A program made the position numbers and the translations under genes. Source: a virus. Taken from it: a DNA stretch of 43,121 nucleotides. The notes below the pieces were generated by a model. It worked only from the letters and a program-made list of their open reading frames with translations. It was not told the origin of the DNA and ran no database searches. Numbering within the stretch: position 1 is the stretch's first letter; each line of letters starts with the position of its first letter. Shown here piece by piece: positions 5,244-24,811 of the stretch. The DNA is taken from positions 1-43,121 of the IMG/VR virus record IMGVR_UViG_3300045988_024784; one strand, given 5' to 3'.

Positions 5244-5256
5244 TATCCAGTGGGGA
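5244..5256 (+). repeat. Crossover site 2 (TATCCAGTGGGGA)
   Basis: This 13-mer is identical to the reverse complement of 5697-5709 inside the expressed fibre gene. Confidence 0.75.
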
Positions 5257-5481
5257 GCGTTTACTAACGTACCAATAGGAGGTACAATTTCATTCCCTGT
5301 TTCCTTTGATAGAGAGTGTTACGTAGTAGTTGGTAATGATATGAATGGTAACAATGTTGATAACCAGGTCCATTCGTTTAGAGAGCATACTAGAACAGGG
5401 GTTAAAGTATATTCTCAGGCGGCGAAAGATGGATTAAATAAAACTACGGCTTGGGGCAGATTTATCGCGGTAGGTAATTAG
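5248..5481 (+). other. Silent tail-fibre C-terminal cassette B (77 codons plus stop, no start codon)
   Basis: Translation is QWGAFTNVPIGGTISFPVSFDRECYVVVGNDMNGNNVDNQVHSFREHTRTGVKVYSQAAKDGLNKTTAWGRFIAVGN*. Its stop overlaps the stop of the expressed gene tail-to-tail. Confidence 0.8.
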
Positions 5482-6467
5482 ATAATTCCTAGTGCGAACC
5501 AGTAATAGGATGCGGCATATCTATCACTCGCCACAAATACAGCTTTTGTATTATTGCTTTCGCTTACAGAGTTTGCAAAATATCTAGGTGTATCAGAACC
5601 ACTCCAATACGCATCGATCGCATTTGCCATGAATAATCTTGTAAATCTAATAGGGAATGTTACTTCCGTTTTTGTGACATTATCTTGTCCGCCAGTTCCC
5701 CACTGGATAGTGAAACCATTAGCAAATTTAACAAAGCCCGCATTAGCGTCGAGCTTAGATGCCACGATAGCACCTTGGCCTAACAGGCTTTTAAGTGTAC
5801 CCAAGTTAAGCACTTTATTAATATCGTTATCGCTATAGTTAGAAGTAATGAAGTTAATAACTTCTTGTGAGTTATCGCCTTTTGTTACTTGCAAGCCTTG
5901 ATTATGTTTAGCGATTGCTTTTGCATATTGGTTTGAGGTAACGTCTAACTTTTTATTAAATGCGTCTTGATGTGCATTTGTAGCCGAATTATGCGCATCT
6001 AATGCAGCTTGCGTGATGTATAGTTGACTGTTAAGGTTGATTTTAACATTAACATCGTTACCAATATAAAAGGTTACAGTAATCAACTTTTCATCTAAAG
6101 ATGTACCAGCTGGGGTATAACTTGCTTGTGCTCCGGCGTTCGTATAAGCGAATAGCTTTTCCGTACCAGTATCACCAACTTTTGCAAATACCCCTAATTC
6201 ACGAGCATAAAAACCACTTGTAACGCTTGCATTAGAAATAGTCGCTACAACGTCGATTTCACCGTTTCCTCGACTGTTAATCGCCTGTACAGTATTCTGT
6301 GCCATAGGGTGCTTTAATGCTGTTAAAGTTTCAAGGCTTTCACTTTCGGTTAACGTGCCATCACCCAATGCAATTCGAGTAAAAATAAGTGGCTTTTTAG
6401 ATTTAATCGCCTCAACCAATAGATTGCTACCGGCTAAGGTCGGAATAATTTTATTGTAATTACTCAT
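5478..6467 (-). CDS. Tail fibre protein with a constant N-terminal part and a currently expressed variable C-terminal tip
   Basis: The N-terminus (IPTLAGSNLL...FTRIALGDG...) resembles the conserved N-terminal domain of P2 H / Mu S-type fibres. The C-terminus is IQWGTGG...VTFPIRF...YWFALGII. It follows the baseplate genes. Confidence 0.85.
   Translation of the reverse strand: MSNYNKIIPTLAGSNLLVEAIKSKKPLIFTRIALGDGTLTESESLETLTALKHPMAQNTVQAINSRGNGEIDVVATISNASVTSGFYARELGVFAKVGDTGTEKLFAYTNAGAQASYTPAGTSLDEKLITVTFYIGNDVNVKINLNSQLYITQAALDAHNSATNAHQDAFNKKLDVTSNQYAKAIAKHNQGLQVTKGDNSQEVINFITSNYSDNDINKVLNLGTLKSLLGQGAIVASKLDANAGFVKFANGFTIQWGTGGQDNVTKTEVTFPIRFTRLFMANAIDAYWSGSDTPRYFANSVSESNNTKAVFVASDRYAASYYWFALGII
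5697..5709 (-). repeat. Crossover site 3 (TATCCAGTGGGGA on the minus strand) inside the fibre CDS
   Basis: Plus strand reads TCCCCACTGGATA. It encodes I-Q-W-G at the boundary between the constant and variable parts. Confidence 0.75.
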
Positions 6468-10818: not shown

Positions 10819-13568
10819 TATACACCTCCATAGTTAACTTCTGCACTTTCAAGCATAGAGAATAACGAATGCGCTATGCGGTCAATATCGGCTTCTTCAC
10901 GAACGACGAATGTATTTCCACTGATAGAGTATTGGTTAACAGAGTTATTACCGCTTAAACTATCCGCAATCATTTTTTCAGTCGTTGCATGTGGATAAAT
11001 GCGACTACCATTCGGCAAGTCTACAATTTCACCGCCACGTTCATTAATCTCAGTCCAACCACCGCCGAAGTGATTTGTACCAGTTGCATGTCCGTTTACT
11101 TTAAGTCCTGTTACTTGCGAGCCTCGTGCTTGTACTGCACTTAAAGCACTACCAATAGCACTAAATACACCGCTTGCTGCACTCTTAATCGGCCCCCATA
11201 CATTTTCATTAAACCAGTTTGCAGCAGACGACCAAACCCCTTTAATAGTTTCCCATGCTTCACTAAAGAACCCCTTAATGGCTTCCCACATGCTACTCGC
11301 AGCACTAGAAATAGGTTCCCATACATTACCAATAAACCAATCAACAGCCGGACCAAAGATAGCAACGATGCCGTCCCAAGCAAAGCCAAATATTCCGGCT
11401 ATAGTATTAATCACCGGAGCACATGTCGATACAATGTCATTCCACTTTTGGCTGAACCATTCAGTCAAGCCTTCAAGGTTACTTGTAATACCGTCATAAA
11501 TCTGTTGTGCTACTTCTTCACCGAATATAGCGCCACCGATACCACCTACAAGACCACCAATAGCACCGCCAACGGCAGTTCCTACGCCAGGAGCAATAGA
11601 ACCTAAGGCAGCACCGCCCATAGCACCGAGTTTAGCGCCAGCTAAGCCACCGGCAAGGCTACCGCCCAAACCAACACCAGCACGAGCTTTATCATCGCTT
11701 GTCGCAATATCATAAGCCCCCATAGCTAATGCCAACGGAACAGCAATTTTACCACCAACTTTTGTTAAGCCGTTACCTAATTTACTTGCACCGCTTTTTA
11801 ACTTACCAAAACGGCCACCGCTTTTAGGTTTAACGCCTTTGCCACCGCCTTCGACTATAGGACCACCTTGCCCCATTCCAGTCATATTGCTTGCATTTAC
11901 AGTTACATTTAAGGCTTGAACGGTCATATCACCTACTGTGCTATCTGCACCAGTACCAGTTCCACCACCGCCTTTTAAACCTTTAAATAAACCATACGCA
12001 CCCTTACCGATTTTAAATGCGCCAATACCACCAACTGCTAATGCTGCTGCTGATAGAATAGAGGGTAGACCTTCCATTTTAAGCGTTTGGCCTACTAACT
12101 CTTTGATAGCGGAAGTTATTCCGTCAAGTACGCTTCGAATGGTAATACCGTTAGTTTCAAAGTTTTCAGTTAAGCCTACGAACCAGTTGTCGATACCTTG
12201 TACAATATCTCTAAAACCGCCAATGCTACCGCCCATTAATTTTGTAGTGAACGAATCCCAATCACCGGATAATTGTTCTAGATCACCTTTTAGATTGTCC
12301 ATGCGAATTTTCGCCATTCGTTCGGCTGCACCGCTAGAATTGTCGATTGCACCTGCTAACTTATCAAAGTCTTCATAAGGCGAATTAACCAATGCGAGCA
12401 AGCCTGACATAGCTTCTTGACCGGCAAGCATACCAGCGACGGCCGCTTTACTATCCGGAGATAGTTTTTTCATGCCTTCGCGAATATCAGCGATAATATC
12501 CCTAAATGGTTTCATCTTGCCATTCGCATCTAAGATATTTAAGCCTAAAATGTCCATAGCTTCGCCGGACTCTTTGGTCGGTTTGACTAAACGAGTCATC
12601 ATCGCTCTTAATGCAGTACCAGCTTCTGAACCCTTGATGCCCTGGTTAGCCATAAGACCTACAGCAAGTGCAGTATCTTGTACGCTAAACCCTAATGCAC
12701 CGGCTACTGGTGCAGCATATTTGAACGTTTGACCCATTAAAGCGACGTTGGTATTTGAGTTAGTGGCTGCTGCCGCTAACACATCGGCGAACATAGCAGA
12801 GTCTTTAGCTTGTAAACCGAATGCAGATAAGCTGTCAGTTACAATATCGGAAGTCATAGCCAAGTCTTCGCCTGATGCGGCTGCCAAGTTCATGATACCA
12901 GCGATACCGCCTATCATTTCATTGGTTTTCCAACCAGCCATGCCCATATATTTGAATGCTTGCGCAGATTCTAAGGCACTGAATTTAGTATCCGCACCCA
13001 TTTGAATTGCTTTTTCATTCAACTTTTGGAACTCGTCCGCCGTAGCACCTGAAATCGCTTTAACTGCTGACATTTCTTCTTCAAAGTCCGCATAGCCTTT
13101 TACGGCATCAAATACACCAAACCCGATGCCAGCCATGCCGGCCATTTGCATTGTAGTTCCAAGCATAGCACCACTAAGTTTATTACCAGCACTAGACATA
13201 GCACCGGCCATATTTTGCTTAACGTTAACTGTAGCTGTGTATACTTTGCCTTTAAAGGTATTGAGTTCACTTTTAATCTTTTGGACTTTAGAAGTAGCAT
13301 CATCTTTTGCGTCGATCTTAACTTTGATATTACTACCGGTACGCTTTAGCTTGGATAGTTCACTCTCAGCAGCCTTTGTGGCTTTCGCTATACCTTGTAC
13401 CGCACTAGTAGCTGCACTCATACTCTTTTCTGCAGAAGATACCGCAGGTGCGAGTGCTGTTGTCGATTGCGCAAGCTTTTGCGTCGATTGTTGGGCGCTT
13501 TGTATTCCTTTTGAGAACCCTTTGTCGTCAAGGTAGAGTTCAACGCCTAGCCTTTCTTTATTAGCCAC
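10818..13568 (-). CDS. Tape measure protein (GTG start)
   Basis: It is 916 aa, with a helical N-terminal part, a Gly/Ala-rich hydrophobic segment and Trp-containing tandem repeats (W..I......W). AAAGGAGGTG lies upstream of the GTG. Confidence 0.9.
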   Translation of the reverse strand: MANKERLGVELYLDDKGFSKGIQSAQQSTQKLAQSTTALAPAVSSAEKSMSAATSAVQGIAKATKAAESELSKLKRTGSNIKVKIDAKDDATSKVQKIKSELNTFKGKVYTATVNVKQNMAGAMSSAGNKLSGAMLGTTMQMAGMAGIGFGVFDAVKGYADFEEEMSAVKAISGATADEFQKLNEKAIQMGADTKFSALESAQAFKYMGMAGWKTNEMIGGIAGIMNLAAASGEDLAMTSDIVTDSLSAFGLQAKDSAMFADVLAAAATNSNTNVALMGQTFKYAAPVAGALGFSVQDTALAVGLMANQGIKGSEAGTALRAMMTRLVKPTKESGEAMDILGLNILDANGKMKPFRDIIADIREGMKKLSPDSKAAVAGMLAGQEAMSGLLALVNSPYEDFDKLAGAIDNSSGAAERMAKIRMDNLKGDLEQLSGDWDSFTTKLMGGSIGGFRDIVQGIDNWFVGLTENFETNGITIRSVLDGITSAIKELVGQTLKMEGLPSILSAAALAVGGIGAFKIGKGAYGLFKGLKGGGGTGTGADSTVGDMTVQALNVTVNASNMTGMGQGGPIVEGGGKGVKPKSGGRFGKLKSGASKLGNGLTKVGGKIAVPLALAMGAYDIATSDDKARAGVGLGGSLAGGLAGAKLGAMGGAALGSIAPGVGTAVGGAIGGLVGGIGGAIFGEEVAQQIYDGITSNLEGLTEWFSQKWNDIVSTCAPVINTIAGIFGFAWDGIVAIFGPAVDWFIGNVWEPISSAASSMWEAIKGFFSEAWETIKGVWSSAANWFNENVWGPIKSAASGVFSAIGSALSAVQARGSQVTGLKVNGHATGTNHFGGGWTEINERGGEIVDLPNGSRIYPHATTEKMIADSLSGNNSVNQYSISGNTFVVREEADIDRIAHSLFSMLESAEVNYGGV

Positions 13569-14102
13569 CGAGCACCTCCTTTATTGCTAATTTAGCGACC
13601 TCCACACGTTCTTTCCTTTCCTTCTCCATAGCTATATTACACATAACCTTCTCGGTCATGCTGAGACTAAAGAAGTAGTCAAACGTATGGCCCTTTAAAA
13701 CTAAGTAGGCGGCCGTAGCCGCCTCCCAGTCTTCTTCTATTACTTTTTTACTTCATCGAAAATAGCGTGATCCAATTTTTTGCCCACGCCTACAGACTCA
13801 ATCAAAACTGTGCTAATAGCTTTAATTTCGCCGAATTCGAATAACTTACCTACAATGTCCATAGGTTCGGCGCAATCGTATGCTTTTTGCAAGTCCTTGT
13901 CTTTCAAGTTAGGTTCAACGATACAGTTATAAACGATATATTCATCGTTATCGCCGTCTAAACCCAATGCTTCTGTCATAAGTAAAGTCGTAGGCTTCTT
14001 AGCCACGACTTCACCCAAGGATGTTTCGATTGTTAGTTTTTGACTTTTACGAGCCTTAATTTCTTCACGTTTAGCAATTAATTCGTTAATAGATACAGAC
14101 AT
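13561..14102 (-). CDS. Tail assembly chaperone, -1 frameshifted long form
   Basis: The slippery heptamer A AAA AAG lies at 13743-13749. The -1 frame is open for 61 further codons (VIEEDWEAATAAYLVLKGHTFDYFF...KEVLGG*) and ends at 13561, overlapping the tape measure start. Confidence 0.7.
13740..14102 (-). CDS. Tail assembly chaperone, short form (XkdN-like)
   Basis: It sits between the tube and the tape measure and is acidic. The ORF ends in GTA AAA AAG TAA. Confidence 0.8.
   Translation of the reverse strand: MSVSINELIAKREEIKARKSQKLTIETSLGEVVAKKPTTLLMTEALGLDGDNDEYIVYNCIVEPNLKDKDLQKAYDCAEPMDIVGKLFEFGEIKAISTVLIESVGVGKKLDHAIFDEVKK
13743..13749 (-). promoter_or_regulatory. Programmed -1 ribosomal frameshift site A_AAA_AAG
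   Basis: This is a classical X XXY YYZ heptamer in the zero frame, two codons before the stop of the chaperone ORF. Confidence 0.7.
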
Positions 14103-14119
14103 TGTTATGTTCCTTTCAA

Positions 14120-14575
14120 TTAATCAATAGATTCAATATATTGAAGATCTTCTGGTGTAAAGCCGAATGGAATATCCGTTTCAACAACTTTACCTTTTTC
14201 AAAGTGTAAAGGAGTTAATTTATTGAACCATACATTATCAATAGAGATACGTTCCTTTTGGCCGTCCACTGCGTCAGGGTCGTCCAATAAGCCTGTAATC
14301 ACGGAACGAGGGTCATGACCGGCGCTCCATGCTTCATGCAACTTACGGAAGTTTCGATTGATAACGTTTTTAATTTTGGCAGTGCCTTCACCTTTAAGGG
14401 AGGTAATTTTACTATCGACGGAATTGCCGATGATAACGTCTTCACGTTGTGCTTCGATTGTACATTCGAAACTTTCAATTTCGAATACCAACTCACCGTC
14501 AAACCATACTTTGCCGTGAGAGCCGTTCCAACGACGGCGACCACGATATTTTACATCTTCGCTTGCTCTTGCCAT
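14120..14575 (-). CDS. Tail tube protein (XkdM-like)
   Basis: About 150 aa, directly after the sheath gene. Confidence 0.8.
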   Translation of the reverse strand: MARASEDVKYRGRRRWNGSHGKVWFDGELVFEIESFECTIEAQREDVIIGNSVDSKITSLKGEGTAKIKNVINRNFRKLHEAWSAGHDPRSVITGLLDDPDAVDGQKERISIDNVWFNKLTPLHFEKGKVVETDIPFGFTPEDLQYIESID

Positions 14576-14591
14576 TTATATTTTCCTCCTA

Positions 14592-15722
14592 TTACATTGT
14601 GAAACTAATTTTAAGGTCTTCCATAGCATCAACGAATTTAACTGTACCAGCTAAACCAACTTCGGAACCTGTGTTATATTCGCGAATGTCCATAACAGAC
14701 ATTTTAGAAATATCTTCGCCTTTGATGATGGCGTAGTTCTTTTGAAATTGTTCGTCAATATCTACATTGTTTTTAGCTCGAGCGTCAAGCACGTTACCGG
14801 CTAATTGATTGAAGTAAACCATGATTGCTGCTACAAATAGCATTTTATGGTCGTAGTCATTGATATATTTACCAACATAGAATTTTTTGAAGGTATCGCG
14901 AATGTCGTCTGTTACCATGTCAACACCTTCAATAATTTTGATTTTACGGAATTCTTGACCTTTGTCAGTTGTGAACGTTTGCAAGGAGTTGCAAGCACGA
15001 GCAATTTTAACACCTTCGCCGTCTTCTTCATCGAACAAGTGGAGTTCGCCTTTGTCGATACGGTCTGTTAAGTCCTCGTATACTTTAACGCTTTCAACTT
15101 CGGTTAATTTGTAATAAGTAGCGGAGCGGTCTAATGGTAAACCAGCCAAGATACCAGCAATACGAGCAGTATATTCGATTGGAGTATACGTTTTGTATGT
15201 AGTTCGACCTTGAGAGTCTTGACCGTTAGGCACTTTAATTTCTTCTGTGCAGAAGTTGATAACGCCGTCATGGTCTGCTGCCACGCTACCTACTACAGCT
15301 TTAACAGTTTTACGACCATTGTTGCGTTCCGCTTTAATGTAGGACGCCAAGTCTTGTTGATCCTGAACTGTACCAGTAGGAGCGGCAATATAATTAAAGC
15401 GAGTATGCTTTAATTGTTTTAACAAAGTCGCTTGCGTGTTTTTTGCACCTTGTACAGTTGTTTTAGGTAATGTGTATACCAATACACGCAAAGGTGTTCC
15501 ATCTAAGCACTTTTTAATTAAATCAGTTGTAGCCTCATCGAATGTTCTGTCAGGAATTTCGCTAATGTCAGAGATTTTGTACTTATTAGATACATCAGTT
15601 GTTTCGCATTTTAAAATCAATGCTACAACGCCACGAGCGGAACGCTTGATAGCAGTTACGCCCTTTGTTTTAAAGTCGATTAGGACCTGTGGTAAACCGA
15701 ATTTTTCTTGTTCGTTTGGCAT
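14592..15722 (-). CDS. Contractile tail sheath protein (XkdK-like)
   Basis: 376 aa and upstream of the tube gene, with overall similarity to PBSX-type sheath proteins. Confidence 0.85.
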   Translation of the reverse strand: MPNEQEKFGLPQVLIDFKTKGVTAIKRSARGVVALILKCETTDVSNKYKISDISEIPDRTFDEATTDLIKKCLDGTPLRVLVYTLPKTTVQGAKNTQATLLKQLKHTRFNYIAAPTGTVQDQQDLASYIKAERNNGRKTVKAVVGSVAADHDGVINFCTEEIKVPNGQDSQGRTTYKTYTPIEYTARIAGILAGLPLDRSATYYKLTEVESVKVYEDLTDRIDKGELHLFDEEDGEGVKIARACNSLQTFTTDKGQEFRKIKIIEGVDMVTDDIRDTFKKFYVGKYINDYDHKMLFVAAIMVYFNQLAGNVLDARAKNNVDIDEQFQKNYAIIKGEDISKMSVMDIREYNTGSEVGLAGTVKFVDAMEDLKISFTM

Positions 15723-15726
15723 TTAA

Positions 15727-16194
15727 TTATTCCTCCTCGGTTAAATTAGAGCCGTTAAGGCTAAATGAAAGAGTATTAATGACTTCACCACGAACAAAGC
15801 CAACTTCCTCGTCGGTGAAAGCGTCGTTAAACTCTAGATTGAAGATAAAGTGCAATACTTCATCTATAAAGGTATGTTCAAAATCATTGATTGTGATATA
15901 CCTGTCCTCGACCTGTAGAACAGGCCGTAATAAGCATTCCAAACTATCGGACATTTCGTATAGCTCAGAACGCTTAACCCGTCCGTTCTTATCTTCCATA
16001 GTCCTGAACGAGATATCTACCTGCACAGTTCGATCGAAGTACGTATAGTCACCTACACCTGTATGAACAAACATTTCGACATAAAAATAAGGTACACTCG
16101 ACTTCTCAACGTTGTCGAAATATACCTTATATGTCGGATATTTACTTTTCAAGAGCTCTACTAGAGCCTTTTGAATGGATCTTAATTTAATCAT
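15727..16194 (-). CDS. Tail terminator/completion protein candidate (XkdJ-like position)
   Basis: Assigned by synteny between the head-tail joining genes and the sheath. Confidence 0.55.
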   Translation of the reverse strand: MIKLRSIQKALVELLKSKYPTYKVYFDNVEKSSVPYFYVEMFVHTGVGDYTYFDRTVQVDISFRTMEDKNGRVKRSELYEMSDSLECLLRPVLQVEDRYITINDFEHTFIDEVLHFIFNLEFNDAFTDEEVGFVRGEVINTLSFSLNGSNLTEEE

Positions 16195-16570
16195 CGATTA
16201 AGTTCCTCAAAATTGTACGCGTATCTTTCAAAAATACGCTTCTACGATGAACAATAGAACGATGCAGCATTTTACTACCTTTCACAAAACCACCTTTTGC
16301 CGTCCTGTGGCCGTATTCTACATGATTTGCATAGTCTGTATTGTTATAGACCTCTACAGAACTATTAGCGACCTCGGAACGCGTCCAGGCATTCCGGAGT
16401 GCGCCGGTATCAACCGGTGTTTTCGCTTTAGTATCAGCAATCAATAATTCTGCTTGCTGTACTAGCAATGTATCTGCGTGCTCAGGATACTGTGATAAAA
16501 TCCTCTTCCATTTTGTATTTAACTGCATGAAGCCGTTAATCTTAACGCCCATATCAAGCCTCACTATCAC
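16187..16570 (-). CDS. HK97 gp10-like head-tail joining protein
   Basis: Motifs TPVDTGALRNAW and NHVEYG are typical of this family. Confidence 0.75.
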   Translation of the reverse strand: MIVRLDMGVKINGFMQLNTKWKRILSQYPEHADTLLVQQAELLIADTKAKTPVDTGALRNAWTRSEVANSSVEVYNNTDYANHVEYGHRTAKGGFVKGSKMLHRSIVHRRSVFLKDTRTILRNLIDD

Positions 16571-16916
16571 GAATTAACGTGATTTCTTGGTGTGACATAT
16601 ACTTAAACGGTGTATCTGCCCGCATAGTAAATATTTGCCCCTGATGATCAACTTTGATTATGTCGTTCGCCATAACATCACAATCTACAGGTAAGGATAA
16701 TCTTAATTTATCCTTTAACGTAAACACGCTATCAGTTTCTACGCCATTCATACTAGTTTGGCTCGTTTGCCCAAGTTTACATGGGATATCGCTATAAACA
16801 GCAACCATTTCGAATACGTCTGCGCCTATATCATCGGTAGTGTCCATTTGTCGAAGGATAGTACATCTATCCTTGTACATAATACTAGCTAGTAGCTTTC
16901 CGTACTCGTTAGCCAT
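16554..16916 (-). CDS. Head closure / head-tail adaptor protein
   Basis: Assigned by size, synteny and resemblance to SPP1 gp16-type head closure proteins. Confidence 0.65.
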   Translation of the reverse strand: MANEYGKLLASIMYKDRCTILRQMDTTDDIGADVFEMVAVYSDIPCKLGQTSQTSMNGVETDSVFTLKDKLRLSLPVDCDVMANDIIKVDHQGQIFTMRADTPFKYMSHQEITLIRDSEA

Positions 16917-17307
16917 TAGACCACACTACTTTCCGATATAGATTTAACTTAGGCTTAATTGATTCAAAGTCTTGTTCGCTAATGCAGCCAATAGGTGACA
17001 CATCAGTAACAGCCCAGGTGAATTCAACATCGTTCTCTTTAAGGGATTTAAGCGGCCCATGAGAGTCGCTATGTTTATCTTTGATATACTTAACGGCCAA
17101 TTCGGCAGCAGTGTATATCAAAGTCCGAGGAAAGTTTGTCCTATGGCAGTAATCCATGCAATCTAGGACGAACTTCTCGGCGAACAAGGCTAGGAAATCC
17201 GTATAATTGTCGACATCTAATGCATCGGCCATCGTGATTAGCCTATTTGATGTATTGATTACGCCTTGTACTGCGTCATCGTAGTCTAGGTATTGCACAT
17301 TACCCAT
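16909..17307 (-). CDS. gp6-like head-tail connector protein
   Basis: It is the first gene after the internal terminator, has an AAAGGAGG RBS, and matches by synteny. Confidence 0.6.
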   Translation of the reverse strand: MGNVQYLDYDDAVQGVINTSNRLITMADALDVDNYTDFLALFAEKFVLDCMDYCHRTNFPRTLIYTAAELAVKYIKDKHSDSHGPLKSLKENDVEFTWAVTDVSPIGCISEQDFESIKPKLNLYRKVVWSNG

Positions 17308-17330
17308 AGCTCGCCTCCTTTTTACGTATT

Positions 17331-17358
17331 AAAAAAGCGCCCTTTAGCTGGGCGCTTT
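17331..17358 (-). terminator. Rho-independent terminator inside the morphogenesis operon
   Basis: Stem AAGCGCCC (17335-17342) pairs with GGGCGCTT (17350-17357). A T-run follows on the minus strand. The terminator overlaps the stop of 17357-17626. Confidence 0.7.
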
Positions 17359-17626
17359 ATACATTATGTTCTGCGACATATTTTCTATACGCTTTAGAAC
17401 TACCTTCTAATAATTGCAAGAAGTAGCCTACTGCGTCTTGTTCATTTTTAATGTATTGCTGATCGTACACCTCGTTACGCTCCGTCCAATACACCGAAAA
17501 CCCTTCGGATGAGTTCTCTAAAATAATTGTACCAGGCACGATAGGCGTAGAACTATTTTCAATATTATAAGAGCTTACAGGCACGCCGATTTTGTGCAAT
17601 AGAGCTTTAACTTCTTTAATTGTCAT
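17357..17626 (-). CDS. Probable immunity protein for the MuF-fused toxin domain
   Basis: This 89-aa ORF starts 1 nt after the stop of the toxin-fusion gene. The assignment rests on position only. Confidence 0.5.
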   Translation of the reverse strand: MTIKEVKALLHKIGVPVSSYNIENSSTPIVPGTIILENSSEGFSVYWTERNEVYDQQYIKNEQDAVGYFLQLLEGSSKAYRKYVAEHNV

Positions 17627-17627
17627 A

Positions 17628-19334
17628 TTAATCGACCTCCTCTAAATACCCTTCATCTAAATAATATTGAATACTTTCCTCTGTCTTATACTGTATTCCC
17701 CCTCCAACTTTATTAAAAGCAGGAGCAGTAACACTAGTCTTTACTGGTAACGGTTTAATAACGACATACTGATGTTCATTATCGGAGTATTCTGCTTCAG
17801 TATAAGGCATTGCCCTATTCACAAACGGCGTGCCAGCAGGTGCCGTATATCGACCTGTTGCTCGCCCGAAACGAGTAAGCTTAGTTCCGACCTGAAGCAC
17901 CTCTGACCACGCGGTACCTACCGCACCATCATTAAGGGGATACAACGGAGATTCCCTTCCGGTCGAATCAGGGTCAGAAAACCATCTTTTTTCTTCATCT
18001 TTACCTATAGTATATCTAAGTTCCTCAAACTCTTCAAGAGGTAGCTTATGATACTTTAACCTGCTTGCATTTAAGTCTCTTAAAACGACTATTTTCAAGA
18101 ACGAATCAGATAAAGGCATGAGGTTTTTACTCATACGTTCGTGCTCTGTCATATTCGGCTTATCAAAATAGCTAACAGCAGCATCGACACGTGCACCTCC
18201 GATTTCTACTTTAGTCAAATCCTGTGCTTTTCTGACTACCACTTCAGTGCCGTTACTAGTTGCTCTTAAAGGCTTACGTTCACGTTTCCACTCTTCAAAA
18301 GATTTCGACTTATCGACGTATACAGCTTTCCAGTTATCGTAATCCATGTTTCTAGGCACCTTTTGGTACTCCCCTTTTTTAAGCGATGCGGTTCTTGATC
18401 CACTCGTTGCTTTTTTAGTGCCTATTGTACCTGCGATAGTAGAACGACAACGAGGATGTAGAGGCGGCACATTTGTACCTACCTCTGCTTCATCAATCGG
18501 ATATACGTGATTATCGTGTTCCCTACAAACAGAAGATGTTCGCTTGTCGAGAGTAGCAATGAATTGGAAGTATTCCATCTTAGCAGACTTTAGCGAGTCC
18601 AATGTCGCTTGATTGTGGGCATAGTTCAGTTCAGTCCGTACTAACCGGACAGCATCATTTTTCCCAACATTCATACGTTCTTGGACTTCCTTAGCTAGCT
18701 TTTCAACAGGAACTCCTCTATGCACAGAATTGAACACCGTATCCTGTAAAGTTCTTGCTAATTTATCGCTATTCCCCCAAATACGTTCGCTATAATTCTT
18801 GCCACTCCATGGAGCTCGTAATACCTGTTCCACGTGTTTTTCATTAACAGATACATTCAAAGGCCCCTGCCCTTTTTTAGCTAACTCGTAGGCAGAATGT
18901 AAACGATTGTCCTTATAAGCATCTTTAAGAAACCCCGTAATCGCTTTGTCTGCTTTACGTCCTAGCTTATCTAGCTCAATTAGTGTATCACCGTACAACT
19001 TGTCGAGCCGTGATATTCTTGATCGCATCGCTAATGTGTTGAGTTCTAACAATGTTTTAGGATTCCCTGTTTCCTCATACTCTGCTAGGTACTCCTCGAT
19101 GTCCTTTCTCCAGGTCCTATACTCTGTACCATTAATTAATTTACGTGCCTCAGAAATACTAACTCCATTATCAGCGGAGAACTTGCCGTACAGTCTTTCG
19201 ATATTAGCTTGGATGCGTTGGGCTGACCGTTCATAGTGAGAGGCCAGCTCTTTTTCGATAGTGTCACGGCTTTTCTTATTCCACTCTTCTTCTCGCTCGA
19301 CGCTGCGCCTAGCCCAATATGAATCAGTCCCCAT
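17628..19334 (-). CDS. MuF / SPP1 gp7-like minor head protein with a C-terminal TNT-like (NAD+ glycohydrolase toxin) domain
   Basis: The N-terminal part has LDKRTSSVCREHDNHVY...PPLHPRCRST (MuF signature). The C-terminal part has RFGRATGRYTAPAGTPFVNRAMP...YVVIKPLPVKTSVTAPAFNKVGGGIQY...YLDEGYLEEV (TNT/DUF4237-like signature). Confidence 0.8.
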   Translation of the reverse strand: MGTDSYWARRSVEREEEWNKKSRDTIEKELASHYERSAQRIQANIERLYGKFSADNGVSISEARKLINGTEYRTWRKDIEEYLAEYEETGNPKTLLELNTLAMRSRISRLDKLYGDTLIELDKLGRKADKAITGFLKDAYKDNRLHSAYELAKKGQGPLNVSVNEKHVEQVLRAPWSGKNYSERIWGNSDKLARTLQDTVFNSVHRGVPVEKLAKEVQERMNVGKNDAVRLVRTELNYAHNQATLDSLKSAKMEYFQFIATLDKRTSSVCREHDNHVYPIDEAEVGTNVPPLHPRCRSTIAGTIGTKKATSGSRTASLKKGEYQKVPRNMDYDNWKAVYVDKSKSFEEWKRERKPLRATSNGTEVVVRKAQDLTKVEIGGARVDAAVSYFDKPNMTEHERMSKNLMPLSDSFLKIVVLRDLNASRLKYHKLPLEEFEELRYTIGKDEEKRWFSDPDSTGRESPLYPLNDGAVGTAWSEVLQVGTKLTRFGRATGRYTAPAGTPFVNRAMPYTEAEYSDNEHQYVVIKPLPVKTSVTAPAFNKVGGGIQYKTEESIQYYLDEGYLEEVD

Positions 19335-19344
19335 ACATTACACC

Positions 19345-20313
19345 TTAGCCCAATTTATGAACGAATTTAACAATGCGGATTTGTTTAGGTTCGTAAACGC
19401 GTTCCCAGTTGCCTGCATCTTTCAATTCTGCACGAGAAACAGACTCAGCGTGAGCACGTGTTTTGTTTTTCCAAGCTACGCCGCGTGGATGCATGATGAA
19501 TGCTTTACGGGAGATAAGATAGTTAACACCGGATCCTTTACGTTTATCGCGGTCAACTTCTACTGGTACAAGACCTACAGGAGAACCAACGCCGTATGCA
19601 ATAGCACCTTCACCGAATAAGTAAGTTGTATAATTACCAGCATCTGCAGGACAGCTGTCATCAACGATTACACGACGGCCCATATAAATGTCGAAAGAAA
19701 CAGCATCAGATTGTCGAATTGTTTGGATCAAGTTCAATTTATCGAGATAAGATTTTGTAGCAGAATGCATTACAACTGCAGTTAAGGAGTTACGAGCGTC
19801 GCCCATAAGTTGCATTGCATCGATGAATGCTTCACCAGAGAATGCTGCGGCTTTGCCTGTTTTACCGGAAATATCAAGTACATGGTCAGACATGCTTGTT
19901 GCTGCGAACACGCCGTCTAGAATGTTAAGCAATTCTTTTTGATGGTCTCGCGCCCAAAAACCTGCTACTAAATCACCGATTGCAGACATAGGGTCTGTAC
20001 CAGCTAATTGCGCAGACAAGTCAGTTGCACCCCACATTTTCGCACGGCGAATAGTAGTGGATGTATCCATTTTGGAACCGATTTTTGCTTCAGTAAGACT
20101 TGTACCTTCTACGATGTCTTCAGAATCACCATTCAAATCAGTGAAGAACGGCATATTGTGTACTTGTGCTGCTTCACTTGCTAATTGGTCGAACTTGGAG
20201 TCACGAGTAATAATACCGGACTGGAAAATTGCAGATAATTCAGATGTACGGTTCACTACATAGTTTTCAAACAGTGCCGTAGGATTAATGATATCTTGTA
20301 AAGTTGTAGCCAT
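19345..20313 (-). CDS. Major capsid protein
   Basis: 322 aa, directly after the scaffold gene, with a strong RBS. Confidence 0.85.
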   Translation of the reverse strand: MATTLQDIINPTALFENYVVNRTSELSAIFQSGIITRDSKFDQLASEAAQVHNMPFFTDLNGDSEDIVEGTSLTEAKIGSKMDTSTTIRRAKMWGATDLSAQLAGTDPMSAIGDLVAGFWARDHQKELLNILDGVFAATSMSDHVLDISGKTGKAAAFSGEAFIDAMQLMGDARNSLTAVVMHSATKSYLDKLNLIQTIRQSDAVSFDIYMGRRVIVDDSCPADAGNYTTYLFGEGAIAYGVGSPVGLVPVEVDRDKRKGSGVNYLISRKAFIMHPRGVAWKNKTRAHAESVSRAELKDAGNWERVYEPKQIRIVKFVHKLG

Positions 20314-20324
20314 TAGTTACCTCC

Positions 20325-20963
20325 TTAGATTAAATTATCAATAGCCACCCCGGCTTGCGCTGCTAATGTTTTAGCTTGGGCCGGATCATTCTTAATAAGT
20401 TCAGCTTGTTGAGTAAGATTGAAATGTTCTTTGCTAAATGGATTAACTTTAGGATTACCTTCACCTTTATTAGGGTCGTATTTAAACTTAGGGTCTCCTT
20501 CTGGTTTAAACAAGAAAGCTTTAGAGGTTTTAAGCTCTTTAAGCTGCTCAGTCAAACCTGTTACCTTGCCATCGTCGCCAAGAATTAACTTAGACTTGTC
20601 AATAAGGTTAGCTACAAGCTCTGCATCCTGTGCAGTATCCCCGATAGCTAACTGTACAGCAGTGGATAACTTCAATGCTTTCAAATCTGCTTCAGATTTT
20701 AGTGCGGCCGCTTTGTTTTCTGCTTGCAGTTTCGTGATTTGTTCTTTCAACGCATCGACGTCTCCCTCGCTATCCTTGAGAGCCTTAAGTTGTTTATCTC
20801 GCTCACTCACAGTAGCTTCAAGGCCTTTCTTTTCCGCGTTGACCTCGTTGAAACGCGATTTAGGAACGTATTCCCCGTCTAGAAATTCCTTAAACTGTTT
20901 AGTCGCATCCTCGATATTATCCTCAGCGACTCCTAGTTTTTCAAGTAATTCTTTGACTGTCAT
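20325..20963 (-). CDS. Scaffolding protein
   Basis: An acidic, Lys/Glu/Ala-rich helical protein between portal and capsid. Confidence 0.8.
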   Translation of the reverse strand: MTVKELLEKLGVAEDNIEDATKQFKEFLDGEYVPKSRFNEVNAEKKGLEATVSERDKQLKALKDSEGDVDALKEQITKLQAENKAAALKSEADLKALKLSTAVQLAIGDTAQDAELVANLIDKSKLILGDDGKVTGLTEQLKELKTSKAFLFKPEGDPKFKYDPNKGEGNPKVNPFSKEHFNLTQQAELIKNDPAQAKTLAAQAGVAIDNLI

Positions 20964-21034
20964 GTTGTTTCTCCTATCCGGTTTTTACCGTGGTTTACCT
21001 GCCACGAATTAGAGAATAAAAATTTATATCACGA

Positions 21035-22468
21035 TTATTCGCTATCGCTAGGTTCGTCTTTGTGGTCGTCTATAGAGCCATCGTCTTGACCTTCGCTATG
21101 CCAATCATCGTAAATACCTTGCTCGGCTTCTTCCGCCTCAATTTGTTTGATTTCCTCGTTCACATCTTCCACGAATGGATGATGAGCAAGGATAGTTCGT
21201 TTAGATACAACGCCCATTGATTTAGAACACATATCGACAAGGTCGCCGTCGTTCTTAACGCTTGTTCTTGTCCATGTTTGCGTGATAGTAACATCACTTG
21301 AGCCATGCGCGGAACAGATAGCACGAATTAATTCGTTAAAGCCGAGTTGAAATTCAGTTTCCATCATGCCGGCTTTGAGCTCTAGTAGTGTGTACAAGAA
21401 CTTCATGGCCTCTCCACTAGTGCCATCTAACCCTTGTTGCTGTGGATCCACGCCTTGCCCCATGTCAAAGATAGCTTTACGTGTGATATCAAGTAGCTCT
21501 TTACGCGCTTCAATCGGGATATCAATGGTTAACGTCGAAATACCACTTCGGTCATCAGGGCCAGTTGAATCCATTTGAATTGCCTTGTACTTCTTCATCC
21601 CTTCAAGGAACTCGGAGAGGTTCTCGCCACCATAGTTAGTTAATACGTAGATAACTTCCTGTACATCTTCTAAGTCATTCAAGAACCCGCTATACGTTTT
21701 ATCGTAAGTATCAATTAACGATTTGATGCGGACGAGGTCCGTTGTATGACTAGCGTTATTCGCAAATGCAATAAATGGGACTTTGCCCATGCCGTGTGGC
21801 ATAGTATCTACTGCTGTAGTAACTCCGCTAGGATCAATCATGGTAAACGCAGTATAAGGAGATAAAGTTTCAAGTGTATCTCCGGTGCGTAAAGAGAACG
21901 CTTGTACCTCCTTATCATTCCAGTACTCGTAAACAGTAATGGTCTCGCCTTCCTCATTGATGTCTGCGTAGACACGTAGCACGCCCTCGAGTCTTGTGTT
22001 GATGCGGTTATTCCAAATTGGGATAATCTCACTAGCAGGTAATACGGCCCACTGGAAACCTTCTTCATCATCAATCCAGTAATGCACCCAGGCAACGCCA
22101 CCGTTAGTCGCTTTAACACATAAGTCCTTACATTTCTTTTCGTAAGCATCGCCTAGCGCGTCAAGGATAATTTCATTTAACTTATCGTTCTTAACATCAT
22201 AAATTGGCGGTGCCGTGAACATGTATGCCGTTTTTTGGTCCACTAAAAGAGGATAAAAAGAATAGGCGATTCGATTATCCGCTTGATGCATTGGATTAAA
22301 CGATTCGCCTTTTTGTTTTGCTTCTTCTATGTCTTTTGGTTTTGTCGGCATTAGCACAATGTCGTTATTAACAGCATAGTAGCGATTAGCTACTTCCATA
22401 TTAGTTACGACGTCTGCATGCCCCAGGGTGTGCTTCTTAATTAACTTCTTAATTAATTCTATTTCCAA
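21035..22468 (-). CDS. Portal protein (SPP1 gp6-like)
   Basis: 477 aa, following the large terminase, with an acidic C-terminus. Confidence 0.85.
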   Translation of the reverse strand: MEIELIKKLIKKHTLGHADVVTNMEVANRYYAVNNDIVLMPTKPKDIEEAKQKGESFNPMHQADNRIAYSFYPLLVDQKTAYMFTAPPIYDVKNDKLNEIILDALGDAYEKKCKDLCVKATNGGVAWVHYWIDDEEGFQWAVLPASEIIPIWNNRINTRLEGVLRVYADINEEGETITVYEYWNDKEVQAFSLRTGDTLETLSPYTAFTMIDPSGVTTAVDTMPHGMGKVPFIAFANNASHTTDLVRIKSLIDTYDKTYSGFLNDLEDVQEVIYVLTNYGGENLSEFLEGMKKYKAIQMDSTGPDDRSGISTLTIDIPIEARKELLDITRKAIFDMGQGVDPQQQGLDGTSGEAMKFLYTLLELKAGMMETEFQLGFNELIRAICSAHGSSDVTITQTWTRTSVKNDGDLVDMCSKSMGVVSKRTILAHHPFVEDVNEEIKQIEAEEAEQGIYDDWHSEGQDDGSIDDHKDEPSDSE

Positions 22469-22479
22469 TCTATCGCCTC

Positions 22480-23739
22480 CTAGTACGTCATTAGTCGGAC
22501 GCCTTTACGTCCATCGAACTCTTCCATTGCATACCGCATAGCATCCATTAAATGGTTAAAATCATCAATAGGCTTATTTACCATATTGTCGAATTTATCT
22601 TTATCCCATGTGTAGTTACTGATTTCAGTAATGAAGTTAACACACCTAGGATGAATAATAATTTTATAGTCCTGGATAATCGAAATTCCGGCACGAATTG
22701 AGTCAGGTCCTTTTTTAGCAGCTCTTATGTTACGTAAACCTGCTTTTCTTAGGTACGCAATCGATTTCGGTTCAGCACTATCGGCCTTAATGCGTTCTTT
22801 AGCATATCCCATCTCAGTAACTTTGCTTAATATGTCCTCATTACTCATGCCCTTTTCGTACATTTCGTCAAAGACATAAATTTCACGGGCCACAGTATCA
22901 ACAAGACCGCAGAATAAGGTGCTTGGGTCATTAACATAACCAAAGTCCATGCCAAATGCAGATTTCACATTTGGTCGTTTAGCTATTTCGTTGACATCAA
23001 AGGCTCGTTCTTCCCAGTTTTCAAATACTAGACCTTCAACAATGCCCCACTCCCCGAGCCCTGCGGTTCTATATCGGCGAGGGTTCTTTTTCATCTCCTC
23101 GAACAGCACTAAGTCAGAGTCACTCAAGAATTCGTTACATAAGTAATTCGTAGTCATGGCTAACACGTTTTCACTAGGTTCATCAAAGAACCTTTTCTTT
23201 AACCAGTGCCTATCTGACCACGGGTTAAAGGTTAAGACTACCTGGTGATACATTCCTTTTGGTAACTGCCCGCGAATAGATTCATCTAGTCTATCGAAGG
23301 CTTCTTCAGAAGTTATCTCATAAGCTTCTTCTACCCATAGCCTGCATAAGGAGCCTACTTCTACGGTGATTGATGTTACCTTTAAAGGATCATCGAGACC
23401 ACGAAATAAAATCTTTTGGCCAGTTGGTACATACGTTATCTCCAGCGGAGATGTAGAACATTTGAAATACCTATCTAGCTGTAAACGGTGAATAGCCCAT
23501 TTAAGCTGCGCAAAACAACTGTCACGCAAAGTTCGTTCTACCTTACGTACGACTAACCAATTTACAGTTGGGTTCTCTACTATCTCAATAATAGCTTTAA
23601 GCGCTTGTGTAGAGGACTTCTTACTGGCACGACTACCCTTGACGGCTTTATAACGCCCTTTGAACCTCCAAAATGCACCGTATCCCTTGCCAACGATATC
23701 AGGCAAGTACACTCTATTAGTCTGCAATATTGTCACCAC
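22480..23739 (-). CDS. Terminase large subunit (PBSX-type)
   Basis: The N-terminus reads FWRFKGRYKAVKGSRASKKS (P-loop region), Walker B-like LWVEEAYE is present, and the C-terminal part is nuclease-like. Confidence 0.85.
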   Translation of the reverse strand: MVTILQTNRVYLPDIVGKGYGAFWRFKGRYKAVKGSRASKKSSTQALKAIIEIVENPTVNWLVVRKVERTLRDSCFAQLKWAIHRLQLDRYFKCSTSPLEITYVPTGQKILFRGLDDPLKVTSITVEVGSLCRLWVEEAYEITSEEAFDRLDESIRGQLPKGMYHQVVLTFNPWSDRHWLKKRFFDEPSENVLAMTTNYLCNEFLSDSDLVLFEEMKKNPRRYRTAGLGEWGIVEGLVFENWEERAFDVNEIAKRPNVKSAFGMDFGYVNDPSTLFCGLVDTVAREIYVFDEMYEKGMSNEDILSKVTEMGYAKERIKADSAEPKSIAYLRKAGLRNIRAAKKGPDSIRAGISIIQDYKIIIHPRCVNFITEISNYTWDKDKFDNMVNKPIDDFNHLMDAMRYAMEEFDGRKGVRLMTY

Positions 23740-24160
23740 CTACGATGAGTACAGGCTTAATATCGATAGTCGTATCACCGCTGAGTATTCTATGACGTTT
23801 CGCCATGAGCTCCAGGGCTTTCAGCCTTGACTTCTCATCCGGTGGTTTATCGATAATTCTAGCTTCGGAACACCCTTCCCCTGTGCCCTCGATAACCACT
23901 TGTTTTTCATTTGAGAGCCCCAGGGCAATTCGTGTTAACTCATACTCGACCTGCTGAGCCGTCATGATGTTTTCATTGAAGTAGGAGTCGCGGAGCTCTT
24001 TGACCCTTGCCTTGATATCAACATTTGACAACAATCGGCTACCTATTCTATTGGCGGTTTTCTCTGAGTAACCAGTGCGAATAGCAGCCTGTGTAGCGTT
24101 CATATCCTTGATGTACTCATGACAAAATTTTTCATGTCGTTTATTTGCTAATGCAGCCAC
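23717..24160 (-). CDS. Terminase small subunit
   Basis: The N-terminal HTH-like sequence KRHEKFCHEYIKDMNATQAAIRTGYS is typical of small terminases. Confidence 0.85.
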   Translation of the reverse strand: MAALANKRHEKFCHEYIKDMNATQAAIRTGYSEKTANRIGSRLLSNVDIKARVKELRDSYFNENIMTAQQVEYELTRIALGLSNEKQVVIEGTGEGCSEARIIDKPPDEKSRLKALELMAKRHRILSGDTTIDIKPVLIVGGDNIAD

Positions 24161-24175
24161 TATCTCACCTCCTGG

Positions 24176-24370
24176 CTATCTTAATACATCACGGCTGTTT
24201 CTCTTAAATCGGCCGTGCGAACGAGTGCATAATCCACAATTACTTTTATGTGCGTGGTCGTGTGTGATATACGTTTGACACAGGCCGTCGTATTCAATTA
24301 GTTTCGCAGTGCAAACGCCGTTCTTGTTATTCAGGCATTTACGTTTAATGCATTTGACTTCTGTGCTCAT
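24176..24370 (-). CDS. Small Cys-rich protein (DUF1540-like), first gene of the late operon
   Basis: Reads VKCIKRKCLNNKNGVCTAKLIEYDG, and further Cys and His residues follow. Confidence 0.6.
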   Translation of the reverse strand: MSTEVKCIKRKCLNNKNGVCTAKLIEYDGLCQTYITHDHAHKSNCGLCTRSHGRFKRNSRDVLR

Positions 24371-24655
24371 TCCTTCTCACCTTTAATACGTTTGTACGCT
24401 CAAATCCGATGACTAGTTGGTTGTTGTTAGGCTATATAGTTATCGGAGGACTACTAGTTCTAGTCATCAGATGTCAGCGTACAACGATACAGGGCAAGCT
24501 CATAATGTATAAGCTTAGTATTATTCTGTGGACAAATTCGGCTCGCCCTGGTTTCATTGTGCGGTAAATTTCATTTTTACATATTCCCTCCCCTTAGCTT
24601 ACGCGATCGCCTACATCATAAATACGGGCCCCTGTATTTACAATGCTACATACAA

Positions 24656-24688
24656 CAAAAAGCACGGTCATCATCACCGTGCTTTTTG
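24656..24688. terminator. Bidirectional rho-independent terminator in the late leader
   Basis: Stem AGCACGGT (24661-24668) pairs with ACCGTGCT (24676-24683), flanked by an A-run and a T-run. Confidence 0.75.
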
Positions 24689-24811
24689 CCGAGTTGTGTA
24701 TAAGAGAGGATTCGTGTTAGATGACTAATGACACCTTTCACAACTACATTATACTATGTCAAGTCGGTTCATTTAAGTCCAAAATACTCCAAAACACTCC
24801 AAAGTACTCCA

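Follow-up and report, generated by a model that had tools for sequence, protein, structure and literature searches.

The window analysed here comprises positions 1 to 43,121 of the IMG/VR virus record IMGVR_UViG_3300045988_024784 (coordinates are those of the window unless another locus is named). Its head module contains, on the minus strand, an open reading frame (ORF) of 568 amino acids (aa), in which a MuF-type minor head protein is joined to a C-terminal TNT domain, followed by an ORF of 89 aa. The pair is probably a MuF polymorphic toxin locus of a temperate, contractile-tailed Veillonella phage, in which a packaged NAD(P)+ glycohydrolase (NADase) and its cognate immunity protein would be encoded as one cassette. 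MuF polymorphic toxins of temperate phages, with small immunity ORFs downstream, were described by Jamet et al. 2017 (PMC5576092), and the features that define them are found here: a MuF N-terminus of the PF04233/PF06152 superfamily, a toxin C-terminus, polymorphism, a small ORF of less than 150 aa and a temperate head module. MuF toxins and TNT NADases are already known; what is new is an undescribed family of candidate immunity proteins, together with a conserved promoter-like element inside the toxin gene.

Only two enzymatic types of MuF toxin have been characterised so far: Apk2, a (p)ppApp synthetase from a Streptococcus pneumoniae prophage, and Bxa, an ADP-ribosyltransferase (ART) from a Bacteroides stercoris prophage (PMC11699363). 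Each is toxic, and immunity genes next to it neutralise the effect (PMC11699363, PMC12226406). As to their role, MuF toxins may be injected or released, and may serve as weapons or as modulators of lysogeny. The locus described below adds to them a well-defined NADase type with a predicted intact active site. Moreover, its exact cassette borders, terminator and promoter-like site make the timing of immunity and the action of the toxin on entry testable, and a cultured lysogen, Veillonella montpellierensis DSM 17217, carries a 66% identical MuF-TNT copy.

The MuF-TNT protein and its exchangeable cassette

The two genes and the parts of the toxin gene discussed in this section are the following.

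17628-19334, minus strand: 568-aa MuF-TNT ORF (Pfam PF04233 and PF14021)
18300-19334, minus strand: MuF (SPP1 gp7-like) N-terminal module, residues 1-345 (PF04233, TIGR01641, PHROG)
18435-18752, minus strand: MuF Pfam core, residues 195-300 (PF04233)
18135-18287, minus strand: linker or pre-toxin segment, residues 350-400 (AlphaFold2 model)
17631-18134, minus strand: TNT-type NAD(P)+ glycohydrolase domain, residues 401-568 (PF14021)
17942-17940, minus strand: codon of Y465
17873-17871, minus strand: codon of R488
17849-17847, minus strand: codon of Y496
17816-17814, minus strand: codon of R507
17693-17691, minus strand: codon of Q548
17630-17628, minus strand: toxin stop codon TAA
17357-17626, minus strand: 89-aa candidate immunity ORF (family profile; downstream of TNT)
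17358-18287, minus strand: exchangeable toxin/immunity cassette, from about residue 350 through the 89-aa ORF (blastn against locus L001)

A first reading of the DNA, made from the sequence only, had recognised a MuF/SPP1 gp7 signature in the 568-aa protein. The motifs that it quoted are present, and profile searches in three collections bear the assignment out: Phage_Mu_F (PF04233) at residues 195-300 (Pfam; E 6.1e-19, 69.3 bits, cut-off 29.6), TIGR01641 phageSPP1_gp7 (NCBIfam; E 2e-28), and PHROG 'minor head protein' families covering residues 1-370 (E 2e-107). The same reading had proposed a TNT-like C-terminus, to be checked by a PF14021 profile search and by structure prediction. Both checks support it. 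PF14021 matches residues 480-567 over its full length (E 1.8e-26, 92.8 bits versus a cut-off of 27, profile positions 2-88 of 88). Residues 350-568, modelled with AlphaFold2 on an alignment of 24 MuF-TNT relatives (mean predicted local distance difference test score, pLDDT, 93.7; predicted template modelling score, pTM, 0.88), match only NADases in the PDB: all 19 Foldseek matches with E<=1e-3 are NAD(P)+ glycohydrolases. The fungal TNT-type NADases 8pms, 6yge, 8r15 and 8r17 come first (E about 1e-12; 6e-13 for 8pms), then the TNT of Mycobacterium tuberculosis (4qlp_B, E 7e-8), and next Tse6, Rhs1-CT and Tne2. At the sequence level, a profile of the MuF-TNT family reaches 4qlp_B with E 4e-5 and the fungal enzymes with E 2e-19. 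The linker of residues 350-400 is confined to close relatives and is modelled as a beta-hairpin with short helices, and distant TNT relatives can be aligned only from about residue 397-401 on.

As to the catalytic machinery of these enzymes, fungal AfNADase depends on each of R129, F137 and Q194; its R148, with the backbone of F130, holds nicotinamide, and the contact to the ribose is made by Y100 (PMC7955114). AfNADase R129, F137, Q194, R148 and Y100 align with R488, Y496, Q548, R507 and Y465-P466 of the window protein, respectively. Across the 24 relatives, whose identity ranges from 97% down to about 35%, R488 and R507 are kept throughout (24/24 each), Q548 is kept in 23 of 23, position 496 is Tyr in 22 and Phe in two, and Y465-P466 hardly varies. 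With all five of its residues conserved in the alignment, the active site looks intact. A catalytic Gln in place of the Glu of ADP-ribosyltransferases fits hydrolysis and not transfer (PMC7955114), so that Q548 at this position agrees with a hydrolase rather than a transferase.

The toxin domain belongs to a unit that is exchanged as a whole. Full-length MuF-TNT proteins are represented in the protein database by ~60 cluster representatives (60-96% identity), and many other proteins match the N-terminal two-thirds at 50-91% identity without TNT. The related locus L001 is the clearest case: its MuF protein shares 91% identity with the window protein over residues 1-367 and no similarity beyond, and the small ORFs downstream, of 89 aa in the window and 75 aa in L001, are unrelated as well. 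DNA homology between window and L001 (blastn) runs over 24188..18288 and again over 17357..11596, with an unrelated stretch in between, and it restarts exactly at the last base of the stop codon of the 89-aa ORF. Since homology breaks at 18288 and resumes at 17357, the swapped unit is 17358-18287. Clustering of the 120 best MuF homologs gave at least 13 unrelated C-terminal types on the same backbone, of which TNT is the largest; a PBECR2 RNase and an ADP-ribosyltransferase are among the rest, most of which have no Pfam match. A conserved N-terminus, unrelated C-termini and a small ORF swapped along with them make up, by sequence comparison, the signature of a polymorphic toxin.

Some further cassettes may be mentioned at this point. 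The second commonest type, found at 6001-8133 of L001 and in 20 cluster representatives (P0063-P0085 group), consists of a ~280-aa C-terminus with a HEIGH motif, possibly a zinc metallopeptidase, followed by the 75-aa ORF, neither of which matches Pfam; in this type, the 75-aa ORF is preceded by a promoter-like site at a distance of 34 nt. Two apparently toxin-less MuF relatives, P0061 and P0077, were rejected as such, being actually split genes, one of them at a scaffold gap. Near the scaffold gap of L034 (positions 1100-1200) there is a run of N and a GGA-to-TGA change, and the split of that MuF gene is probably an assembly artefact. In L033 (3001-5154) a 366-aa MuF protein is followed by separate ORFs of 255 and 78 aa, which represent either a genuinely split toxin or another artefact.

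The small downstream protein as candidate antidote

The 89-aa ORF begins one nucleotide past the toxin stop, as had been noticed from the sequence: the stop codon is followed by a single T (17627), and the ATG starts at 17626. Its ribosome-binding site (RBS) lies within the toxin gene.

17636-17640, minus strand: GGAGG RBS of the 89-aa ORF, within the last toxin codons and 9 nt before the ATG (read from the sequence)

The 89-aa protein has no match in Pfam, PHROG or NCBIfam. A word-indexed search retrieved close relatives only, one of them from Veillonella montpellierensis, and an exhaustive profile search of 1.84 billion representatives returned 23 clusters, 22 of which are real proteins of 76-106 aa. 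The remaining candidate, P0148 (856 aa), was rejected as a repetitive surface protein. Membership in known immunity families was also rejected: none of the 22 family members matches Imm63, the family characteristic of Ntox40, at E<=1, a single chance-level match to Imm59 (E 0.04) was obtained among them, and no other immunity family gave a convincing match. The AlphaFold2 model is confident (pLDDT 92.1) and has an alpha-beta4-alpha-alpha arrangement, and Y20, E49-R50, E62 and A65 are conserved in the family. No significant fold match was obtained in the PDB by Foldseek (best E 0.2), nor any in the BFVD viral library; IFT, Tsi6, Tni2 and RhsI1, chain A of 4QLP included, are absent from the PDB matches. 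The family is compact and folds confidently with neither a Pfam nor a PDB counterpart, and is a candidate for a new NADase inhibitor fold.

The link with the toxin is provided by genomic association. A hidden Markov model (HMM) of the family, with E-values between 1e-13 and 1e-38 (Z=1e6), matches the ORF directly after TNT in 20 of 21 IMG/VR loci, as well as in L004, L006 and L007. Toxin identity in these loci is as low as about 37%, and the ORFs begin between -14 and +2 nt from the TNT stop. The sole exception among the 21 viral loci is L023 (IMGVR_UViG_649989997_000001), where 4851-5465 encodes a 204-aa TNT protein with a signal peptide and no family member follows. The family is likewise absent after the non-TNT cassette of L001. 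Furthermore, toxin and small protein diverge together: between the relative groups L016-19 and L020-22, TNT identity falls from about 80% to about 50% and that of the small ORF from about 75% to about 45%, whereas the backbone changes from 85% to 80-83% (capsid), from 79% to 77-79% (MuF N-terminus) and from about 76% to about 68% (adaptor). Only this contrast is informative, as the rank correlations of divergence do not discriminate (all rho >0.94).

The cassette type is also found in other genomic settings. L024/L025 (3909-5722) encode a divergent MuF protein with TNT and an 86-aa family member; this MuF protein has no BLAST match to the N-terminus of the window protein and no Pfam MuF match, but contains a PxLPAHPNCxCR motif. 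The presence of TNT and a family member behind such a divergent MuF indicates that the cassette type has moved between MuF lineages. In L026 (IMGVR_UViG_3300029718_000007, 1839-5692), three tandem ORFs of 304, 183 and 166 aa with TNT C-termini are each followed by a family member of 86-88 aa, the 166-aa one being a standalone TNT domain without MuF; between the units lie duplicated pieces of the scaffold gene, which have 95% identity over 81 aa. This arrangement looks like the orphan toxin-CT/immunity arrays of Rhs and CDI loci, here in a MuF context. Finally, distant family members were found by an HMM check on short contigs, in L008 and L010 without any TNT gene and in L009 beside a weak TNT remnant (E 0.005). 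These copies are probably orphan immunity genes.

Taken together, the swap with the toxin, the 20 of 21 loci, the arrays and the orphans uphold the earlier proposal that the 89-aa ORF is the partner of the toxin, and its product is very probably the antidote of the TNT toxin. The main alternative is a dedicated chaperone or packaging adaptor specific for TNT, which would keep the domain folded but inactive, or competent for export into the procapsid. Strict co-occurrence, co-divergence and tight translational coupling would be expected of such a protein too, and the lack of similarity to any known immunity family is compatible with it; in the tandem array of L026, however, the standalone 166-aa TNT without MuF retains its partner, and arrays and orphan copies such as those of L008 and L010 are hallmarks of immunity genes. 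Immunity is favoured for this last reason, and the chaperone is considered the less likely of the two roles, and an improbable one.

Candidate transcription signals inside and behind the cassette

Two elements that may bear on the expression of the small gene were recognised.

18009-18037, minus strand: promoter-like element, TTGAAG (18037-18032), 17 nt, TATACT (18014-18009) (generic scan)
17331-17358, minus strand: intrinsic-terminator-like hairpin with 9-bp stem, 7-nt loop and U-run (folding, conservation)

A sigma-70-like site, always with a 17-nt spacer, is present at the homologous position of the toxin gene in all 14 TNT loci examined, 361-382 nt upstream of the ATG of the small ORF (about 380 nt in the window); the non-TNT cassette of L001 lacks it. 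The codons that the hexamers overlap specify a conserved Leu/Ile and a conserved Tyr-Thr/Asn, and the choice of synonymous codons at these positions is unusually strict. CTT is fixed in all Leu-bearing lineages, though it makes up 16% of Leu codons in these genes; at the -10 hexamer, TAT is found in 12 of 12 sequences and ACT or AAT in 11 of 12, whereas other invariant residues are spread over two to four codons. The only ACC occurs in L023, whose -10 hexamer (TATACC) has lost its final T and which is also the only locus without a downstream family member. When synonymous codons were re-drawn in six lineages sharing 35-53% protein identity, a promoter-like column common to all six arose in none of 5000 re-draws, the maximum being five lineages, reached twice. 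The fixed codons and the outcome of the simulation point to constraint at the nucleotide level. The simplest reading of the conserved site, suggested by its sequence and by the analogies given below, is that the immunity gene has a promoter of its own within the toxin gene. Such a promoter should not yield an active truncated toxin, as the first in-frame Met past the predicted start site is M509.

Arrangements of this kind have precedents. The morons of HK97 and lambda are promoter-gene-terminator units expressed from the prophage, and the immunity genes of nuclease colicins have a constitutive promoter inside the colicin gene. It is possible, although on balance doubtful, that the immunity gene of the window is likewise an autonomous, moron-like transcription unit, which would make the head-borne NADase either a kin-discriminating weapon or a self-limiting pulse at entry. 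If true, this would provide the first concrete regulatory logic to explain how a phage with MuF toxins in its head can spare the next host that it enters.

As regards the other end of the cassette, the sequence-only reading had noted a hairpin terminator and had regarded it as private to the toxin cassette. The hairpin is there: its stem, AAAGCGCCC/GGGCGCUUU, lies at 17358-17334, the U-run (6 U) reaches 17331, and its folding energy (dG) is -14.7 kcal/mol. It was found by a custom scan and was not listed by a generic terminator scan, probably because the extended stem takes up part of the T-run. The shuffle z-score of its 81-nt context is weak (-1.45). A GC-rich hairpin with a T-run occurs at the same position in every relative, with at least five different stem sequences, among them GCGCCC/GGGCGC, GCACCC/GGGTGC, ACCGCTTAC/GTAGGCGGT and AGCATCGTAC/GTACGGTGCT, and one stem pair has changed on both sides, from G-C to A-T. 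Since different stems and a compensatory change are found at one position, the hairpin is conserved as a structure and is most likely functional. Private it is not, at least in evolutionary terms: the identical hairpin stands behind the unrelated cassette of L001, and its sequence is the same in L003. Its arrival with the cassette was rejected, as DNA homology with L001 resumes upstream of the hairpin. No toxin-less control for the terminator was found among the short MuF relatives.

This is the only clean intergenic hairpin with a U-run in the ~24-kb morphogenesis block according to the custom scan; the others are situated ahead of the terminase genes and close to the left end. It is interpreted as separating the head module from the connector/tail module, either as their boundary or as an attenuator. 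Two side observations concern hairpins of this region. The terminator loop (17343-17349) is AGCTAAA in the window and its reverse complement, TTTAGCT, in L011 and L012, with identical stems, which points to a hairpin-mediated flip of the loop. In addition, a bidirectional hairpin at 24640-24700, AAAAAGCACGGTG...CACCGTGCTTTTT, with T-runs on both strands, lies inside a 650-nt gap upstream of the small terminase gene; early and late transcription units probably meet at this hairpin.

Phage context, proposed action and relation to known systems

The genes that surround the pair in the head module are listed below.

21035-22468, minus strand: portal (PF05133, E 3e-110)
20325-20963, minus strand: scaffold (PF06810, E 2e-41)
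19345-20313, minus strand: major capsid protein (PF20036, E 2e-11; phrog_247, E 3e-107)
19345-22468, minus strand: upstream head block of portal, scaffold and capsid
16909-17307, minus strand: head-tail adaptor, the first gene past the terminator (phrog_132, E 1e-11)

The head module is contiguous on the minus strand, running from portal, scaffold and capsid through the 568-aa and 89-aa ORFs to the adaptor, which is separated from the 89-aa ORF by a 49-nt spacer and, as read from the sequence, has its own RBS (GGAGG, 17318-17314). The portal gene lies three genes upstream of the MuF-TNT gene, which does not adjoin it, and the terminase lies further upstream. The order portal-scaffold-capsid-MuF had been noted from the sequence as unusual. 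This holds in comparison with SPP1; within its own lineage, however, the order is typical, since terminase-portal-scaffold-capsid-MuF-small ORF-adaptor is found in all relatives of the window lineage, and the position of MuF after scaffold and capsid is a fixed lineage trait. In L024, the canonical portal-MuF order is found with the TNT cassette type.

The window encodes a tyrosine integrase (41859-42995), a CI-like helix-turn-helix protein with an adjacent IrrE-like peptidase, a Cro-like protein, and sheath, tube and tape-measure proteins; for these reasons it is assigned to a temperate contractile-tailed phage or prophage. The integrase and the CI-like repressor agree with the temperate lifestyle expected for MuF toxins (PMC5576092). 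A near-identical IMG/VR genome of 42.7 kb exists (L011, protein identity 98-100%). Sequence relatedness to the V. montpellierensis copy identifies the host as Veillonella, a Negativicute, and other MuF-TNT relatives are labelled Veillonella or Megasphaera. Phages of the MuF-TNT lineage are very common in human-associated Veillonella, one relative (P0116) being present in 536 blocks of the assembly collection. No close relative is found among deposited phage genomes: megablast of 16900-20400 against GenBank phages gave no match, and by tblastn against deposited phages the 89-aa protein had no match and TNT only two, both of them distant fragments from Listeria.

Two other regions of the window are of separate interest. 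A second tyrosine recombinase (4168-5013, plus strand; PF00589, E 6e-20) lies amid minus-strand tail-fibre-like genes (5478-6467, with Gp53-like_C; 1891-3273, with collagen repeats), and the region 2857-5485 is bracketed by an imperfect 28-nt inverted repeat (2857-2884 / 5458-5485, 79% complementary); it may be an invertible, tail-fibre-switching segment that determines host range. The other region, 40999-41742, belongs to the lysogeny module, where it is placed after the repressor/IrrE-like pair and before the integrase; its 247-aa product contains a PemK/MazF-like toxin domain (E 2e-8) and is unrelated to MuF-TNT.

A mode of action can be proposed by analogy with better known systems. SPP1 gp7 is present in 1-2 copies per capsid, and a MuF toxin has been detected in StB12 virions (PMC5576092); on the model of SPP1 gp7, the MuF module would bind portal and procapsid, and a few copies of the fusion protein would be built into each head. 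The 89-aa protein, most likely translated in step with the toxin, would neutralise it by direct binding, as in the TNT-IFT, Tse6-Tsi6 and Apk2-IapK pairs, and would spare the producer's NAD+ pool. The fusion protein could then be ejected with the DNA into the next cell, as suggested by analogy, where NAD(P)+ would be hydrolysed to nicotinamide and ADP-ribose(P) unless immunity were present. With the internal promoter and the terminator, host RNA polymerase would probably transcribe the immunity gene apart from the late operon, and immunity would be expressed in lysogens and immediately after DNA entry. If the gene is so transcribed, carriers and recipients of the cassette would be protected and other cells would not.

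The toxin might instead be released upon prophage induction and lysis. Free or virion-associated, it would then find its targets beyond the bacterial cytoplasm, such as extracellular NAD+ or human epithelial or immune cells, and immunity would protect the producer only; the toxin's likenesses would be the Bacteroides MuF-ART toxin Bxa, Streptococcus SPN and the TNT of M. tuberculosis. The Bxa MuF fusion does act on host epithelial cells and needs bacterial immunity proteins too (PMC11699363). Moreover, the closest solved relatives of the toxin domain are surface-exposed fungal NADases and the macrophage-killing TNT of M. tuberculosis, these phages abound in human-associated samples, and the related TNT of L023 is a secreted protein without an immunity gene. 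The window protein, however, has neither a signal peptide nor a eukaryote-targeting domain; the at least 13 cassette types, RNases among them, and the orphan and arrayed immunity genes are typical of bacterial conflict; and the conserved promoter-like site is suggestive of a need for protection beyond the late lytic phase. Release is accordingly regarded as unlikely.

An even less probable purpose of an injected TNT is counter-defence or host takeover, and not attack on competitors. In that case a short pulse of NAD(P)+ hydrolysis at entry would deprive NAD+-dependent antiphage systems, such as TIR/Thoeris signalling or ADP-ribosylating defences, of their substrate, or would bias the choice between lysis and lysogeny. 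Early action of head-packaged, MuF-fused enzymes that use NAD+ has been proposed (PMC9503650), Jamet et al. suggested that MuF toxins influence whether lysogeny is chosen (PMC5576092), and an internal sigma-70-type promoter would permit rapid immunity, ending the pulse. Against this, NAD+ depletion is itself the abortive-infection outcome at which many defences aim, and nuclease, peptidase-like and ART cassettes at the same site argue for generic toxicity.

The interpretation as a packaged NADase with its antidote, preferred here, has some observations weighing against it. In the TNT of M. tuberculosis, which has DRxG and QRxL motifs, R757 binds the substrate and a D756-R780 salt bridge is stabilising (PMC6398120). 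The DRxG Asp is replaced by T487 in the window protein, and the column is T in 13, S in 8 and D in 3 of the 24 relatives, the salt-bridge partner, R507, being present. With Thr in this place the activity could differ, and the toxin domain looks, from its sequence, like an active NADase with one atypical structural position. Of the 219 residues in the model, the C-terminal ~120 alone can be superposed on NADases of known structure (TM about 0.46), the preceding ~100, a helical part and the beta-hairpin, being less represented in solved structures. The 89-aa protein is unlike known NADase immunity proteins, and its proposed role comes from genomic association. As for the promoter-like site, it is a consensus match whose conservation could serve another function at the nucleotide level, and reading it as a promoter implies a leader of about 370 nt. 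Finally, replication of the phage itself would seem to suffer from an injected NADase if immunity were not expressed early.

With respect to the literature, no description of a MuF-TNT toxin was found in the publications searched. In the available portion of the supplement text of PMC5576092 there is no mention of TNT, PF14021, Ntox or ADP-ribosyl, and TNT is absent from the main text; the former is weak evidence, because 'ADP-ribosyl' is missing there too. The one trace found is a tree in a 2026 paper, where some NADases are labelled 'MuF systems' with no further comment (PMC13285283), and the PF04233+PF14021 architecture has already been computed in databases. Within a survey of viral NAD+ metabolism, MuF was reported fused to ARTs, Nudix and 2H domains, TNT (Ntox40) was noted in other polymorphic toxin systems as well, and Ntox40 with Imm63 was reported only in polymorphic toxin systems of mycobacteriophages (PMC9503650). 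These share with the window a phage-borne TNT toxin and an adjacent immunity gene, but they were described as secreted systems and not as MuF fusions, and the immunity candidate of the window is not Imm63.

In comparison with MuF toxins in general, the locus has the same N-terminal MuF module, variable toxin C-terminus, small downstream ORF, temperate head module and cassette polymorphism, and differs from the canonical ones in that MuF follows scaffold and capsid instead of standing beside the portal. Further differences from the described MuF toxins, of which Apk2 and Bxa are the characterised members, are its TNT-type NADase, its Veillonella host, the contractile tail, and a single immunity gene of an undescribed family, with no enzymatic second immunity protein.

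The TNT-IFT pair of M. tuberculosis CpnT (4QLP) has in common with it PF14021, the fold, the equivalents of R757, Y765, R780 and Q822, and an adjacent gene for a neutralising protein. The two differ in sequence (~20% identity), in delivery, which in M. tuberculosis takes an outer-membrane or ESX route, in their unrelated immunity proteins and in the DRxG Asp, which is Thr in the window. The fungal NADases AfNADase (6YGE), N. crassa (8R17) and F. oxysporum (8R15) are the closest solved relatives, with alignable active-site positions and a single-sequence match to the window of E 4e-14; unlike it, they are glycosylated, secreted homodimers with a Ca2+ site and have no immunity partner or phage context.

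Tse6-Tsi6, Tne2-Tni2 and Serratia Rhs1-CT-RhsI1 are likewise C-terminal NAD(P)+ glycohydrolase cassettes with a small immunity protein, and these type VI secretion effectors are structurally related to the TNT model of the window (Foldseek E 3e-5 to 2e-4). Their delivery depends on PAAR, Rhs or VgrG and not on MuF and a capsid, their identity is 13-18%, and their immunity folds are unrelated. Finally, the present locus, with its candidate promoter in the toxin ORF, the immunity gene behind it and an intrinsic terminator, is comparable with morons and colicin immunity genes; the difference lies in the terminator of the window, which belongs to the phage backbone and is shared with other cassettes, and in the distance of ~380 nt between the promoter-like site and the ATG.

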